A stretch of DNA of 40,554 nt from a virus. This document shows positions 24,130-30,102 of the stretch, piece after piece. Under the pieces are notes generated by a model. It searched no databases, had not been told where the DNA came from, and was given only the letters and a program-made list of their open reading frames with translations. The DNA lies in UHGV virus genome UHGV-0200722. One strand, 5' to 3'. The position numbers and the translations under genes are program-made. Each line of letters starts with the position of its first letter. Position 1 is the first letter of the stretch.

Positions 24130-24133
24130 AGTT

Positions 24134-24200
24134 GAAGCCCCAACTGCGGGAACAGTCAGGGCTTCGGTTGTCAGTAAATCCGTGGAGAAAAACCAACATG
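24134..24200 (-). ncRNA. sar: Candidate sar-like antisense RNA region across the arc-ant junction (boundaries approximate)
   Basis: In P22 a small antisense RNA covers the ant RBS and ends at a hairpin between arc and ant; a GAAGCCC...GGGCTTC hairpin lies at 24134..24164. The promoter was not identified here. Confidence 0.3.
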
Positions 24201-25133
24201 AATAGTATAGCAATTTTAGAAGCAGTGAACACCTCTTACGTACCATTCAACGGTCAGCAAATTATCACCGCCATGGCTGCCGGAGTTGCATACGTTGCGA
24301 TGAAGCCAATCGTTGAAAACCTTGGAATGAGCTGGTCAACGCAGCAAACAAAACTCATGAAGCAGATTAGCAAATTCAACTGTGTTCATATGAACATGGT
24401 TGCCGCTGATGGGAAGCTTCGTAAGCTACTCTGCCTTCCTTTGAAGAAGTTAAATGGATGGCTGTTCAGCATCAACCCTGAGAAAGTTCGTGCTGACATC
24501 CGTGATAAACTGATTCAGTACCAGGAGGAATGCTTTAGCGTGCTGCATGACTACTGGACTAAAGGCCATGTAGTTAACCCACGCAAAGCTAAAAAGGCGT
24601 TGCCGGGTAAAATCACCACTGAGCAGCAGGAAGCCATTAAACAACTCGTCATGAGTCGCGGTCAGTCTCTGCCAAAAGAAAAACAGGCGAAGGCAATGAT
24701 TACCATGTGGTCGTCACTGAAATCCCATTTTGGATGTTCGTACAAAGAAATCAGTGAGGAGCAGTTTACCGAAGCACTGTCACTTGCAGCTCGAGTTCCA
24801 CTTGAAGGCGAGTTCATTGGCAAACAAGAGAGGAAAGTCAAAGAGCTTTCTGCAAAAGAAGCAAACAGCCTTGTATGGTTATGGGATTATGCCAACCGCT
24901 CACAGGCATTATTCCGCGAACTGTATCCGGCGCTGAAACAAATTCAATCGAACTATTCCGGCAGATGCTACGACTATGGTCATGAGTTCTCGTATGTTAT
25001 CGGAATGGCGAGAGACGTTTTAATAAACCACACACGAGATGTTGATATCAATGAGCCAGACGGACCAACGAATCTTTCCGCATGGATGAGACTTAAGAAT
25101 AAAGAATTACCTCCTTCAGTACATAACTACTGA
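24198..25133 (+). CDS. ant: Antirepressor Ant
   Basis: Start [14 protein letters not shown]... at 24198 downstream of arc; ~311 aa; classical immI position. Confidence 0.85.
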
Positions 25134-25151
25134 CAGATAACCAACGCAACG

Positions 25152-25176
25152 ACCCAGCTTCGGCTGGGTTTTTTTA
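25152..25176 (+). terminator. Rho-independent terminator after ant
   Basis: ACCCAGC-ttcg-GCTGGGT followed by TTTTTTT. Confidence 0.85.
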
Positions 25177-25311: not shown

Positions 25312-27654
25312 ATGACAGATATTACAGCCAATGTTGTAGTGAGCATGCCTTCGCAACTCTTCACTATGGCTCGTTCTTTTAAAGCCGTAGCCAATGGCAA
25401 AATTTATATCGGTAAAATTGACACTGACCCGGTAAATCCTGAAAACCAGATTCAGGTTTATGTGGAGAACGAAGACGGTTCTCACGTTCCTGTTTCGCAA
25501 CCAATCATCATTAACGCTGCTGGATATCCGGTATATAACGGACAGATTGCCAAATTCGTTACCGTGCAAGGCCATTCCATGGCTGTTTATGATGCGTACG
25601 GTGCTCAGCAGTTCTATTTTCCTAATGTGCTAAAGTATGATCCAGATCAGTTTAGGCAGCAGCTTGCAGTAGTTGATAGCAATGTATTGATTTCTGGTGT
25701 TCCAGCAAAAGATGTTGTAAATGCCAAAACTGGACGAGCACCAGTAGTTATGACTCGAAAAGTTACAGACCTTCTTCTTGATGGTAAGGCTGGATTGCGT
25801 AAAAACTTTGGTGCTGTAGGCGATGGTAGTCATGACGATACACAGGCATTTAATGATCTGTGGGATGCGCTTATGGATCCGACATATAAACGCCGCGCAA
25901 TAGAAACAGACGAGGTTGGTCTGCCATTTATGATACAAAAAGGCCCGGCACTTCTAATTGAAAATGGAACGTTTATTTACAATGGGCCTGGTCTCAATAT
26001 TGAAACATCAGATTCATTTGTATTTAACATATCAGGTGAGAGCAGTATTTCAACAAAGATACTTTTACCAGATGGAGTATACCTATTCGATTTCGATAAT
26101 AACCCTGTTCATGCATATCTAGGGAACATGTCAATTCATGGTGGTAAAGGTGCTGTTCGATACAAATCAAAAGAACGATCAACTAACAGCATTCACCTTT
26201 TCGAAAATCTTCGCCTGTCGAGATACAAGGAGTGTGGCATAGGGAATAATTCAATCGATATGCCGTATTTCCGAGTGAAGGGATGCATGTTATACGGGGA
26301 CCCAGCAAGCCAGACTATTGGTATTTGTGTCTCTGGTTACTCTGCTGGCGGCTTCATTGAGGACTGTGTTATCAGCGACAATAGATATAATATAAAACTG
26401 GCAGTTGGTGATAATGGCGTGGAGCGTAATGGCCCTGCAACGCCTTTCTATGTCTGCAGGAACGACATGTACCGCACGGGGCGACGAGCGCCATCAGCAT
26501 CGTATGACATATGGATTGAGCCTGGTGCTACTACCCTCAACTCTGGGAGAGGTATTCAGATAATCCAAAATAAATTTGGGCAAGAAAACCTAATCGCACC
26601 AGATACTCATGTTTTGATCGCAGATGCTGCCGCTACAGGGAGCGGGTTAAATCTCAATGGAGATCGCGCTCATATAGAAACACAGTCAGTTGGTTTTGTG
26701 TCTGGCTTACGTTTCGAGGGGAATAACGTAAACTCAGCTAATAGTGGATATATTGCCCCTTTCATTCGCTCATTTACGCCAAACCTTGGAAATAACAAAA
26801 TAAATGACCTTTATGACAATGACATGCCAGCAAGAATCATAGAGTTCGCGGGTGGCATAACCCAAAGTCAAATGACTAACCTTTCACGTACCAACGTCTT
26901 TAGTGCAGACCAATGCATTGCGCTTCAGAAGGGTGTTGAACCTAAGTTGTTATCTAACCTTAATGATGTCTTCCGGCTTGATGATCCTTTGGGGTTCTAC
27001 GTCGGGCATCCTCAAGCTCAGGTTTTACCGTCAGGTTCTCAGCAGATTGGATTTGAATTGATCTACTCTGGGCCGACGTCGACGATTGGGGTGAGTAACG
27101 CAACAAGATTATCGGTAAATAACTCATATGGAGGAATATCGGAAGCAACTGAAATCACAATGACCGCTTCTGATGGCGTGGCAGTTGCCACTGTTGTTGG
27201 CGGACTTGCTGGTAGGAAGCACTGGATTGATTTCGAGCTTAAGCGCGGGACAACAAACCCTGTTGGTTCTGTTGTTGTGGAGATAATGGATGCTTCCGGG
27301 TCAGTTCTCCAACTTCGTCGTATTATTTTAATAGATACTTTTCCACGCTGGCAGAAAGTCGCCATTCCTTATATTCCAAATGAAGACGGTAATATTGTAG
27401 TCAAATTCAGATCTAATCTTTATTCGGCTGGAACGGCAACTAACTTTATTGTCGGAAATCTCAATGTTTACAGGAATGAGGAGCGAGTCAATACAGGGCA
27501 TAACTCAGGATTGAGGATGCAATGGAATCTACAACATACCGTAAGAGGCACAAGACACGAGTGGTATGACGCGTCAGGTAATTTACGCTCCAAAAATGGG
27601 GTGCCGAGTGGGGATGCCGATGGGGTAATCATTAGCGCTAACCCAACATTGTAA
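25312..27654 (+). CDS. Tailspike protein (P22 gp9-type head-binding domain; divergent receptor-binding domain)
   Basis: First ~110 aa match the P22 gp9 N-terminal domain ([12 protein letters not shown]...[34 protein letters not shown]...VLKYDPDQ); the remaining ~670 aa are unrelated to P22 gp9. Confidence 0.9.
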
Positions 27655-27681
27655 AAATTTGATCTTCGCATAGCTAGAAGT

Positions 27682-27701
27682 TACTGTATATAAAAACAGT
27701 A
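27682..27701. promoter_or_regulatory. LexA (SOS) box TACTGTATATAAAAACAGTA upstream of the 27718..28274 operon
   Basis: CTGT-N8-ACAG core with AT-rich spacer, 17 nt upstream of the ATG at 27718; possible -35 TTGATC at 27658..27663. Confidence 0.7.
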
Positions 27702-27717
27702 TTTTGAGGTTATAGAC

Positions 27718-27957
27718 ATGATCAGACGCAACATAATTTCGGAGGCTTTCAGAGCCTCCATTTCTATAAATCCTAAAGGTTATCAATACCTTTACACGCA
27801 TTCTTTCATCTCCGAACTACAGAGGATGGGTATCAATTTCTCAGAAGAGGAGGCTAACAACTGGATATCGAGAGAGCAGACTTACTTTGTTGACAAAACC
27901 ACCGACCATAGCGAAAACCGCCTGTGGATGCTGGCCAATATGGGGAGGGTGCTCTGA
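27718..27957 (+). CDS. Hypothetical 79-aa protein, first gene of the LexA-box operon
   Basis: ORF directly downstream of the LexA box; stop overlaps the next start (TGATG); no recognisable family. Confidence 0.5.
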   Translation: MIRRNIISEAFRASISINPKGYQYLYTHSFISELQRMGINFSEEEANNWISREQTYFVDKTTDHSENRLWMLANMGRVL

Positions 27958-28274
27958 TGGGATTTCCATCACCGGCGTCCGACTACGTCGAGCAGCTACT
28001 GTCCGTTAACTCGATATGCAATGTTGGTCCTAACACATTGTTGCTTGAAACCAGTGGTGGATATGCCGTGGTTGATGTCTCTCTGAAACTTAAGCAGAGA
28101 TGTCAGGTGATGGTCTGCTATGAAGCACATAATCAGATAGCGAAGCTTATGGGGAAATCTTTGATAACGGAGGATGGAGAGGCGATCGAGGGAGAGGCCC
28201 TGGATGATGTCACCGTTGCCGTCGTGGTGACGCATATTATCGTGGATGTGAGAAGTGACAGCGTAGCAGTATAA
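27957..28274 (+). CDS. UmuD'-like (HumD-like) protein lacking the catalytic Ser motif
   Basis: Begins M-GFPSPASDYVEQ, matching the post-cleavage N-terminus of UmuD (GFPSPAADYVEQ); C-terminal beta-region resembles UmuD, but the GDSM motif is not conserved. Confidence 0.5.
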   Translation: MGFPSPASDYVEQLLSVNSICNVGPNTLLLETSGGYAVVDVSLKLKQRCQVMVCYEAHNQIAKLMGKSLITEDGEAIEGEALDDVTVAVVVTHIIVDVRSDSVAV

Positions 28275-28619
28275 GGCAGACCCACAATCAGGGCCTGCCG
28301 ATTTTGATTACTCCACCTTTTCATCAATCCAGTCCGCCCACCACTGCATCATTTCTCTGCGCTTATCGTGGCAGATGCCTCACTATCACACGGTGATGGT
28401 TCATTACTGGTTTGCATAATGGATAGAGAACTGAGGATAAAAGATATCCCAAAACCCCAAAATCTCATCTTTAGGATTTGCAGAAAGGGAGGCGTGAACA
28501 AATACCTGCGCATGAAAACGGAACTAGTCCGGATGCGATATTTTTGGTGATCACGTACATCATCAACGAAGCGCGTTATGGTGAGTTTTATGACTGCCAA
28601 GTAATGTGAAAATTGCGAT

Positions 28620-28642
28620 GCGTACCAAATTGTGTACCAAAT
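28620..28642 (+). repeat. Arm-type direct repeats (GTACCAAAT x2), putative integrase arm sites of attP
   Basis: gcGTACCAAATtgtGTACCAAATt, ~280 bp upstream of int. Confidence 0.55.
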
Positions 28643-28870
28643 TAAAATCATAAACCATGAACCCCTTACTCATGGCTGTTCTCAGGCTGGGTGCGTGTAA
28701 TCGTGAAAGAGGAAGGTAGGTTGTTTATCTGTGTCTGTCATTGTCTAGCATTGTCCACTGTAGTTAATTAACTGTCTGTTATAACTCGAAAAAACAACCA
28801 TTTTTTCACCTGAGTATGTCTACGAACGTCAAATATAGTTGTTTACTGTGCGCTGTTGTCCATGTGATAT

Positions 28871-28917
28871 TGTGTACCAGATGTGTACCAAACCATTATT
28901 TCTGAGCGTACCAAATA
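28871..28917 (+). repeat. Arm-type direct repeats (TGTACCAG / TGTACCAAA / CGTACCAAAT), putative attP arm sites adjacent to int
   Basis: Three copies of the same 9-bp motif within 50 bp, ending 7 bp before the int start codon. Confidence 0.55.
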
Positions 28918-28923
28918 TTATTT

Positions 28924-30102
28924 ATGGCTATAAGCGACACAAAACTGCGTACTATTTATGGTAAACCATATTCGGGCCCACAAGAAGTGGCTGATGCCGA
29001 TGGCCTCAGCGTACGAATTTCACCGAAGGGGGTCATCCAGTTCCAGTACCGCTATCGCTGGCATGGCAAGCCTAATCGACTTGGGCTTGGTCGATACCCA
29101 TCCCTGTCTTTGAAGGATGCCAGACAGATCACTGCTGACTTGCGAAAGCTCTATTTCTCAGGAACGGATCCACGCACCTATTTTGAAGAGAAGGTGGAGA
29201 ACTCCATGACGGTCGCCCAGTGTCTCGACTACTGGTTCGACAACTACGTCTCTACAACTCTCAGAGAAAAGACCCAGGCACTTTACCGATCAACGGTTAT
29301 GAAGCGCATGCATGACGCCTTTCCTAATCGTCCGGCATCTTCTATCACGGTTAAGCAATGGGTTGACCTGCTTACCGAAGAAGAAAGAGATAATCCACGC
29401 CGAGCAAGGCAGGTGCTAAGTCAACTAAGATCAGCAATAAGTTGGTGCATGCGGCGTCAGTTGATAGATAGTTGCGCAATTATGAGCATCCAGCCAAGGG
29501 ACTTCGGCTCCCGCGCTGAGGTAGGGGATCGGGTACTGTCGTATCACGAACTGGCTAAGATTTGGCTTGCTATTGAAAGAAGCCGTGCGTCTACGTCAAA
29601 TAAGCTCCTTCATCAGATGCTTATGCTGTGGGGGGCGAGGCTCTCAGAGCTTAGGCTGGCAACAAAGACAGAATTTGACCTGCTGGACAACGTATGGACC
29701 GTACCGAAAGAGCATAGCAAGATGGGTAATGTTATCCGCCGTCCAATCTTCGAACAAATTAAGCCTTTTCTCGAAAAGGCCATGACAACGTACAATGATG
29801 TTATTTTCCCTGGAGAAGACATAAACAAACCGATCAGCATCGCTGCAGCCAACCGATTCGTAAATAGAATAAGGGGAGGGATGGATCTAGGTTACTGGCG
29901 AACACATGATTTCAGAAGAACGCTTGTTACACGTCTGTCCGAGATGAATGTCGAGCCTCATGTTACTGAGCGAATGCTCGGTCATGAACTTGGCGGGATA
30001 ATGTCCGTGTACAATAAACACGACTGGATAGAGGCTCAGCGCAAAGCGTATGAGCTTCACGCTGATAAATTGTTCTGGCACATCAGGAGCATTTCTGATT
30101 AA
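28924..30102 (+). CDS. int: Tyrosine integrase (P4-type, arm-binding N-terminal domain)
   Basis: 392 aa; N-terminal arm-binding-like region (VRISPKGVIQFQYRYRW); C-terminal catalytic motifs (HDFRRT, LGH, terminal Tyr). Confidence 0.9.
   Translation: MAISDTKLRTIYGKPYSGPQEVADADGLSVRISPKGVIQFQYRYRWHGKPNRLGLGRYPSLSLKDARQITADLRKLYFSGTDPRTYFEEKVENSMTVAQCLDYWFDNYVSTTLREKTQALYRSTVMKRMHDAFPNRPASSITVKQWVDLLTEEERDNPRRARQVLSQLRSAISWCMRRQLIDSCAIMSIQPRDFGSRAEVGDRVLSYHELAKIWLAIERSRASTSNKLLHQMLMLWGARLSELRLATKTEFDLLDNVWTVPKEHSKMGNVIRRPIFEQIKPFLEKAMTTYNDVIFPGEDINKPISIAAANRFVNRIRGGMDLGYWRTHDFRRTLVTRLSEMNVEPHVTERMLGHELGGIMSVYNKHDWIEAQRKAYELHADKLFWHIRSISD

Follow-up and report, generated by a model that had tools for sequence, protein, structure and literature searches.

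We analysed a window of 40,554 nucleotides (nt), the whole stretch of the virus genome UHGV-0200722, and asked what its tailspike gene encodes and which polysaccharide the spike is likely to recognize. The phage is a temperate P22-like (Sf6/HK620-like) phage of Escherichia coli, and the gene is its tailspike. Along the window lie homologues of gp10, gp26, gp14, gp7, gp20 and gp16, followed by an immI region (a SocA/Panacea pair, mnt, arc and ant), the tailspike gene, two small open reading frames (ORFs), an integrase gene and the early region (Table 1). The place of the gene, 3' of the ejection-protein cluster and immI, is that of a P22-type tailspike. Across the common parts the backbone is about 96% identical to phages N7, Sf6 and HK620. 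The identical tailspike protein is found on three public contigs, and one of its carriers is a 40.7-kb metagenomic scaffold with a complete P22-like gene order.

How much of the protein is P22-like? Its first 113 residues match the Pfam profile Head_binding over all 113 profile positions (E-value in Table 1), which again places it among the P22-type tailspikes. The head-binding domains of the P22, Sf6 and CUS-3 types in the PDB are matched at E-values of about 1e-45 to 1e-51, and identity to HK620 is 92.7% over amino acids (aa) 1-123. In a PDB sequence search the P22 gp9 chains 8tvr, 2xc1 and 2vky can be aligned to aa 1-116 alone. The alignment of Sf6 gp14 nominally covers aa 1-193, being convincing to about aa 116 and at an 'FG..GDG..DD' cap motif, and sparse between them. 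Thus P22 gp9, Sf6 gp14, HK620 gp9 and CUS-3 share with the window protein the head-binding domain, the gene position and the junction after 'KYDPDQ', while past aa ~116-193 its receptor-binding domain has no detectable sequence similarity to P22, Sf6, HK620 or CUS-3. At the DNA level, 1,151 of the 5,426 complete E. coli genomes that formed our host survey match the first ~350-386 nt of the gene alone. In a multiple alignment the attachment domain is conserved to about aa 118, a linker occupies aa 119-141, and the core of the C-terminal family starts from 'GRAP' at aa 142. That domains are exchanged behind the P22 head-binding domain is textbook knowledge, with P22, Sf6 and HK620 as the known cases. 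The ORF called by the first-pass annotation was therefore borne out in strand, start and length, and so was its statement that just the first ~110 residues are P22-like and are followed by an unrelated receptor-binding domain of ~670 aa (667 aa remain after the head-binding domain). Its further claim, that the C-terminal part is unrelated to the P22 endorhamnosidase in sequence, held as well; the general beta-helix fold class is common to both. A likeness of the head-binding domain is also found outside phages: the N-terminal domain of WceF (PDB 6tgf_F, residues 47-176) resembles its aa 7-136 (window 25330-25719; E=2.4e-10), so that this virion-attachment domain is also present in a non-phage protein.

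Searches of the C-terminal part for known families returned none in PHROGs (aa 115-780) and none in NCBIfam. Pfam gave only a sub-threshold 20-aa motif of PF12708 (pectate-lyase cap) at aa 164-183, and PDB sequence searches with the single sequence and with a 40-sequence profile found nothing past the N-terminal cap. A structure prediction and fold comparison, as proposed by the first-pass annotation, gave the fold class. The AlphaFold2 monomer model built from the 40-sequence alignment is confident (mean pLDDT 85, pTM 0.81). In it an alpha-helical cap precedes a long beta-helix, and beta-sandwich modules form the C-terminal end; the right-handed parallel beta-helix, the predicted catalytic domain, would place the protein among the beta-helix depolymerases. 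The best Foldseek matches in the PDB are tailspike depolymerases (CBA120 TSP4, TSP2, Depo32, K2-2 TSP, Kp7 gp52 and DpK2), pectin-lyase-like glycanases are also among the closest folds, and the C-terminal modules match the carbohydrate-binding modules (CBMs) CBM4, CBM29 and a porphyran-binding CBM at a target-normalised TM of 0.5-0.7. All these beta-helix neighbours are generic, with 9-17% identity, and substrate specificity cannot be read from the structure.

The C-terminal domain nevertheless has many relatives of its own. By tblastn against phage records, proteins 56-63% identical over aa 114/142-780 occur in unrelated phages, including Raoultella phage RP180 (Kagunavirus), the ~41-kb E. 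coli and Klebsiella phages TH49, TH50 and MT09, Gamaleyavirus, Vectrevirus and a 252-kb Klebsiella jumbo phage. The module is further carried by T7-like phages and several prophage backbones, and its spread over so many backbones shows how freely it moves. The whole chimera, the head-binding domain joined to this C-terminal domain, was absent from the phage records in the same search. A search of 5.8 billion proteins gave 54 clusters, each with an identity of 50% or more. Most come from Klebsiella, Raoultella and E. coli; the clusters have many differing N-termini and lack Pfam annotation over the C-terminal region. An exhaustive profile search gave fewer than 10 representatives (at 50% identity) above 800 bits, a tight group that belongs to a wider family with 281 representatives at E<=1e-30. 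In the papers on RP180 and in one on tailspike modularity this spike family is not characterised, and a literature search for the hosts of phages AN24P2 and NIC06P3 gave no result. One record deserves a remark: Acinetobacter phage LAPP1 (MN923124.1, 12104-14134) contains a 60.6%-identical copy of the receptor-binding domain annotated as 'putative prophage endo-N-neuraminidase', and both this annotation and the Acinetobacter pittii host of the record look doubtful.

Then which polysaccharide does the module recognize? A characterised member of the family is 319_37 (WP_205422060.1), a prophage protein of 794 aa from K. pneumoniae KSB1_7F, which is KL127/O13 (PMC13123978). The recombinant protein gave halos on KL127 alone among 118 K-types (PMC13123978; DepoCatalog preprint), and as KL127_319_37 it was assigned to DepoCatalog class 1F, 'double C-domain' (DepoCatalog preprint). 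Its family tracks KL127 across several lineages of Klebsiella (PMC13123978), and three related prophage clusters, PC0959, PC0692 and PC1803, were predictors of KL127 in a genome-wide association study (GWAS) (PMC13123978; DepoCatalog preprint). Identity of the window protein to 319_37 is 67.6% across the 262 aa compared (aa 134-392); to 321_74, the paralogue of 319_37, it is 66.2% across 396 aa (aa 134-516). The representatives of the GWAS clusters correspond to our family members P0008 (100%), P0012 (93%) and P0013 (94.6% to 319_37 over 280 aa), to which the window domain is 71, 67 and 68% identical, respectively, over 96-97% of its length (660 aa for P0013). Compared with these three independent KL127-associated lineages, identity is even along the beta-helix, at 60-78% per 40-aa bin, and falls to 52-55% within the C-terminal modules, at aa 641-680. 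The homology thus extends across both the catalytic and the C-terminal domains, as expected of a 319_37-like protein. The two proteins have in common the 'GRAP...GLRK.FG.VGDG.HDDT' cap, the beta-helix, the double C-terminal module and the KL127 host locus, at 66-71% identity. They differ in the adaptor, which is a Tail_spike_N or branching-type anchor in the Klebsiella prophages and the P22 head-binding domain here, in a ~10-aa insertion 'AVDEDTGEFVRF' present in the Klebsiella lineage and lacking from the window protein, and in the host genus, Klebsiella for the one and E. coli for the other.

The bacterial genomes that carry the gene give a second line of evidence. In the survey the full-length tailspike gene occurs in three genomes, XJW9B263, EM03-18-08 and VE-F5, at 98.5-99% nt identity. 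The three prophages have differing immI regions and occupy two integration sites, one adjacent to dacD (two lysogens) and one at tRNA-Arg/intS, which points to separate acquisitions, the module having been acquired or moved more than once. In EM03-18-08 the tailspike, and presumably the entire phage with it, is found in the chromosome and again in a separate 39,096-bp 'plasmid' record (NZ_CP063485.1), which suggests an excised circular phage genome and hence an active prophage. XJW9B263 was typed in silico as O101:H9 and sequence type (ST) 10 (PMC8317193), and EM03-18-08 is also ST10 (PMC8350485). The capsule locus of XJW9B263 is a Klebsiella-like group 1 locus with the order galF-PAP2-wzi-wza-wzb-wzc-wbaP-...-gnd-rmlBADC-ugd; the genome also has O9-family genes adjoining his and an O locus of the O89/O101/O162 family between ybdK and nfsB. 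In the O89m clade it is the O89-type locus that functions, only a remnant of the O8/O9 genes is left, and the capsule locus, of Klebsiella type, differs between strains (Harris et al., PMC6128206); strain 6409 of that study was typed KL127 by Kaptive (PMC6128206, Supplementary Table 1C). The variable region of the XJW9B263 capsule locus is 100% identical in 17 of the 5,426 genomes, among them 6409 and all three lysogens, and we assigned KL127 to E. coli genomes from this identity together with the published typing of 6409. The E. coli locus is collinear with, and 94.9% identical to, a Klebsiella locus of the same architecture. Outside the P22-like phages, the related protein P0006 joins a 72%-identical domain to another adaptor in an unrelated type of prophage, where holin and endolysin genes follow. 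Among the complete genomes strain 45E alone has it, and this strain, too, is one of the 17 with KL127. All carriers of the domain family among the complete E. coli genomes (4/4) thus lie within the 17 KL127 genomes, in agreement with the KL127 hosts of the 319_37-like family. Within the same capsule locus, between wzy and the pyruvyltransferase gene, there is an unannotated ORF of 405 aa with ~10 hydrophobic segments (L003:13016-14233 in our extract of the XJW9B263 locus). It has no Pfam match, is left unannotated by RefSeq in most of these genomes, and is probably the Wzx flippase otherwise lacking from the annotation.

Could the target rather be the O89m/O101/O162-type O-antigen of the lysogens, with the KL127 association as a clonal artefact? 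The tailspikes of P22, Sf6 and HK620 are O-antigen endoglycosidases, all lysogens have the O89/O101/O162-family locus between nfsB and ybdK, and two of them are ST10. However, 316 complete genomes have this O locus at >=99% identity, while all four carriers fall in the 17 with KL127, so the O-antigen does not explain the association. On the assumption that the 17 KL127 genomes are all O89m, for which only XJW9B263 was checked directly and 6409 is known from the literature, the chance that four of four carriers fall within 17 KL127 genomes of ~306 with the O-antigen as target is ~7e-6, or ~2e-4 when three independent events only are counted. Moreover, the Klebsiella lineages in which the family tracks KL127 have a different O type, O13 in the host KSB1_7F, and 319_37 was active on the KL127 reference strain alone. 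The O89m/O101 O-antigen was therefore rejected as the target on the genome counts (316 vs 17), and we regard it as very improbable. An O9/O8-type polymannan (equal to Klebsiella O3/O5), common to E. coli, Klebsiella and Raoultella, was considered as well. The taxonomic spread of the homologues matches that of mannan O-antigens, and wzm, wzt, wbdD, wbdA, wbdB and wbdC, all intact-looking, adjoin his in the lysogens (L003:27845-37991; L016:28421-38567). On the other hand, the O8/O9 genes of this clade are a remnant without the first genes of the locus (PMC6128206), manB (annotated rfbK) of the lysogens is truncated by IS1 with no manC annotated, and in Klebsiella the family's KL127 hosts have O13 and not O3/O5. 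Since the locus is a known remnant and the Klebsiella hosts have other O-types, the polymannan was also rejected, with hardly any probability left to it.

A third line of evidence lies in the capsule locus itself. Between the last glycosyltransferase gene and gnd of the E. coli KL127 locus there are small 'hypothetical' ORFs, which turned out to be fragments of a homologue of the tailspike domain: by tblastn they match aa 144-774 of the window protein at 43-60% identity across three frames. The pseudogene lies at L003:16500-18575 in XJW9B263 and is identical in the independently assembled VE-F5 (L016). Compared with the intact Klebsiella gene it has two in-frame stops and six indels that shift the frame; in RefSeq its place is taken by three small hypothetical proteins. 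The intact copy, P0046 (684 aa, L017:10001-12055), is the last variable gene of the collinear Klebsiella locus, and another intact copy, P0036 (L020/L021:10001-12076), is the last variable gene of a diverged Raoultella locus of the same architecture; these loci are KL127 or KL127-like. Over 638-666 aa both copies share ~52% identity with the window domain, the most divergent part being aa 561-720 with 28-35% identity. In place of the phage adaptors they have twin-arginine motifs, 'TRRLFLE' in P0046 ('MKNITRRLFLE...') and 'SRRRFLR' in P0036 ('MNKFSRRRFLRG...'), while the window protein has no twin-arginine signal peptide and starts with the head-binding domain. Tat-exported tailspike-like glycanases of exopolysaccharide loci are known in WceF (Pantoea stewartii, PDB 6TGF), AmsF and WcaM (PMC7949094). 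P0046, P0036 and P0037 are like WceF in concept only, that is, in being the last variable gene of a capsule locus with a twin-arginine signal and a beta-helix tailspike-like fold; neither the 40-sequence profile searched against the PDB nor NCBIfam placed them in the WceF/AmsF/WcaM family by sequence.

Since the capsule made by a locus is presumably the substrate of an enzyme that the locus encodes, this homology independently ties the tailspike family to the KL127-type polysaccharide, and the homologue sits in the KL127 capsule locus and not in the O locus, which is one more point against an O-antigen target. The ~52% identity over ~650 aa, C-terminal modules included, might imply fairly direct gene flow between capsule loci and phage tailspikes, a suggestion that we make tentatively and about which we remain in some doubt. 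Its direction could be either way: phages may capture a capsule-processing glycanase of the host, or K-loci may domesticate phage depolymerases. If this is true, the decay of the E. coli KL127 copy could alter capsule chain length or phage susceptibility. A limited literature search gave no report of a locus-encoded homologue for Klebsiella depolymerases. Such homologues are a possible route to the origin of phage capsule specificities and a genomic shortcut for predicting depolymerase substrates.

Given the modular architecture, the predicted fold, the homology to 319_37, the KL127 hosts of all four E. coli carriers and the homologue within the capsule locus, the C-terminal module has as its most likely target the Klebsiella-type KL127 group 1 capsule, which it would bind and cleave, and is thus probably the primary host-range determinant, a reading drawn from sequence that we hold with considerable confidence. 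The first-pass annotation had proposed a modular, host-range-determining tailspike with another glycan specificity, for O-antigen or capsule; this is supported, and the evidence favours the KL127 capsule over O-antigen. Its supposition that the C-terminal domain has no characterised tailspike of high identity stands only in part, in view of the 66-68% identity to the KL127 depolymerase 319_37 and its paralogue; the domain is thus no uncharacterised orphan, and its functional reading is confirmed. The following scenario may be drawn. The spike, presumably a homotrimer as in the P22 family, would be docked onto the tail by its head-binding domain, which appears to have recombined around aa 117-141 with a capsule-depolymerase module of ~640 aa. 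The beta-helix catalytic domain and the CBM-like sandwiches would then bind and cleave the KL127 capsule, probably worn by a subset of the ST10-complex 'O89m/O101' E. coli clade, and the virion would tunnel through the capsule to the outer membrane. The cleavage may be hydrolytic or eliminative; as the KL127 locus contains ugd, its polysaccharide may include a uronic acid, which would allow a lyase mechanism.

Several observations weigh against this conclusion. The lysogens are phylogenetically related, two being ST10, which makes the four carriers less than fully independent. IS1 copies flank or interrupt the KL127 locus of E. coli, and the K-type of the hosts is read from genes. The activity of 319_37 is weak, as its halos required at least 320 ug/ml (PMC13123978), and our direct comparison with it is limited to its first 400 residues, the full length being bridged via P0013 and P0052. 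The identity of ~67% to the validated enzyme is a distance at which specificity can switch, and in other Klebsiella depolymerases few substitutions or changes of the C-domain are enough to do so (DepoCatalog). Finally, the catalytic residues cannot be assigned among twelve Asp/Glu positions that are invariant in the family, namely E201, E217, D260, D316, D385, D399, E425, D431, D451, D502, D558 and E611 of the full-length protein.

Might the protein then be a capsule depolymerase that has drifted, at this identity, to a related K-type, or one with dual specificity? Specificity switching among structurally similar Klebsiella depolymerases is documented (DepoCatalog), for five of the 14 prophage enzymes with activity the K-type degraded was not the one of the lysogen (PMC13123978), and the dip at aa 641-680 falls in the same direction. 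Yet all E. coli carriers are KL127, and conservation against the three KL127-associated lineages is even along the beta-helix; we consider such a drift unlikely. That the module is a pure adhesin, which binds the capsule and is catalytically inactive, seems more improbable still: 319_37 gave halos, the twelve Asp/Glu positions are invariant in 40 family members with the chromosomal ones included, and the closest folds are enzymes. Cleavage of the KL127 capsule thus remains the preferred explanation.

How does this spike compare with known systems? CUS-3, with its K1 endosialidase, is already a P22-like coliphage whose spike is specific for capsule and not for O-antigen. The likely target of the window protein, a Wzy-dependent group 1 (Klebsiella-type) capsule, is unlike those of the P22-family spikes. 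A closer parallel is found in phiHS3 and phiHS4 of the proposed genus 'Hueyvirus', P22-like phages which need the K47 Klebsiella-like capsule of E. coli HS (bioRxiv 10.64898/2026.05.19.726188). Like the present phage, phiHS3 is a temperate P22-like coliphage. Its tailspike clusters with proteins of Klebsiella phages and targets a group 1 capsule derived from Klebsiella, as the window protein probably does, and tailspike exchange across unrelated phage groups is seen for phiHS3/phiHS4, with Klebsiella phages as partners, as for the window module. phiHS3 differs in the capsule (K47, not KL127), in the tailspike family, in having two tailspikes instead of one, and in the backbone, which here is Sf6/HK620/N7-like. 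P22-type module swaps are already known, and the catalytic family received its KL127 assignment in 2025-26; the novelty lies in the combination of a P22 adaptor and a KL127 module in O89m-clade E. coli, and the less expected element is the close homologue within the capsule locus. A likely receptor, the KL127 group 1 capsule, can thus be assigned to a rare P22-like coliphage tailspike, with a link to the ST10-complex O89m/O101 E. coli, which are associated with multidrug resistance and have Klebsiella-derived capsules. After K47 of E. coli HS, KL127 would be the second capsule type for which P22-like coliphages borrowed Klebsiella-type depolymerase modules. The protein is also a candidate KL127 depolymerase for typing or anti-capsule use in both E. 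coli and Klebsiella.

Table 1. Features of the tailspike gene and its surroundings in the window (positions in nt)
Feature	Position	Strand	Basis
Tailspike gene, 780 aa, ATG start	25312..27654	+	ORF; P22 gp9 homologue by position and N-terminus
Head-binding (virion-attachment) domain, aa 1-113	25312..25650	+	PF09008, E=2.6e-67
Linker and recombination junction, aa 114-141	25651..25734	+	DNA similarity stops here; homologues with other adaptors alignable from aa 112-144
N-terminal cap and right-handed parallel beta-helix, predicted catalytic domain, aa 142-581	25735..27054	+	Cap motif at aa 164-183
CBM-like C-terminal beta-sandwich modules, aa 582-780	27055..27651	+	Model secondary structure, Foldseek
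ant-like ORF	24132-25133		P22_AR_N/C domains
Terminator-like hairpin and T-run, between ant (antirepressor) and tailspike genes	25151..25170	+	Consensus scan alone
ORF, 79 aa, phrog_3893, directly after tailspike	27718..27957	+	PHROG match
UmuD-like ORF, 105 aa, phrog_3469, co-travels with tailspike	27957..28274	+	PHROG match
attP-type region, right-hand end of tailspike-specific cassette	28310..28920	.	92-93% identity to known attP regions
Tyrosine integrase (context only)	28924..30102	+	PF13356 and PF00589

Downstream of the tailspike, window 27655-28306 (650 bp) has no megablast nucleotide match in 50,697 phage records, while the attP-type region that follows resembles those of Sf101, mEp234, E212 and phage 2851. 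From the absence of matches up to this point and their return at ~28310, the tailspike-specific segment can be taken to run from the intragenic junction to ~28306. The product of the 79-aa ORF, WP_113411252, is the same protein that follows the tailspike in all three lysogens and on the P0002 contig, and both small ORFs (window 27718-28274) accompany the tailspike in every genome context seen. The UmuD-like ORF is a shortened S24-peptidase N-terminus, 'GFPSPASDYVEQ'. A link of the two ORFs to the depolymerase was considered and none was evident, both being generic phage families. In the immI region, an antitoxin-like ORF of SocA/Panacea type (149 aa) overlaps a 164-aa ORF of phrog_8366 (window 22740-23613), a moron pair which is possibly a toxin-antitoxin or defence cassette.

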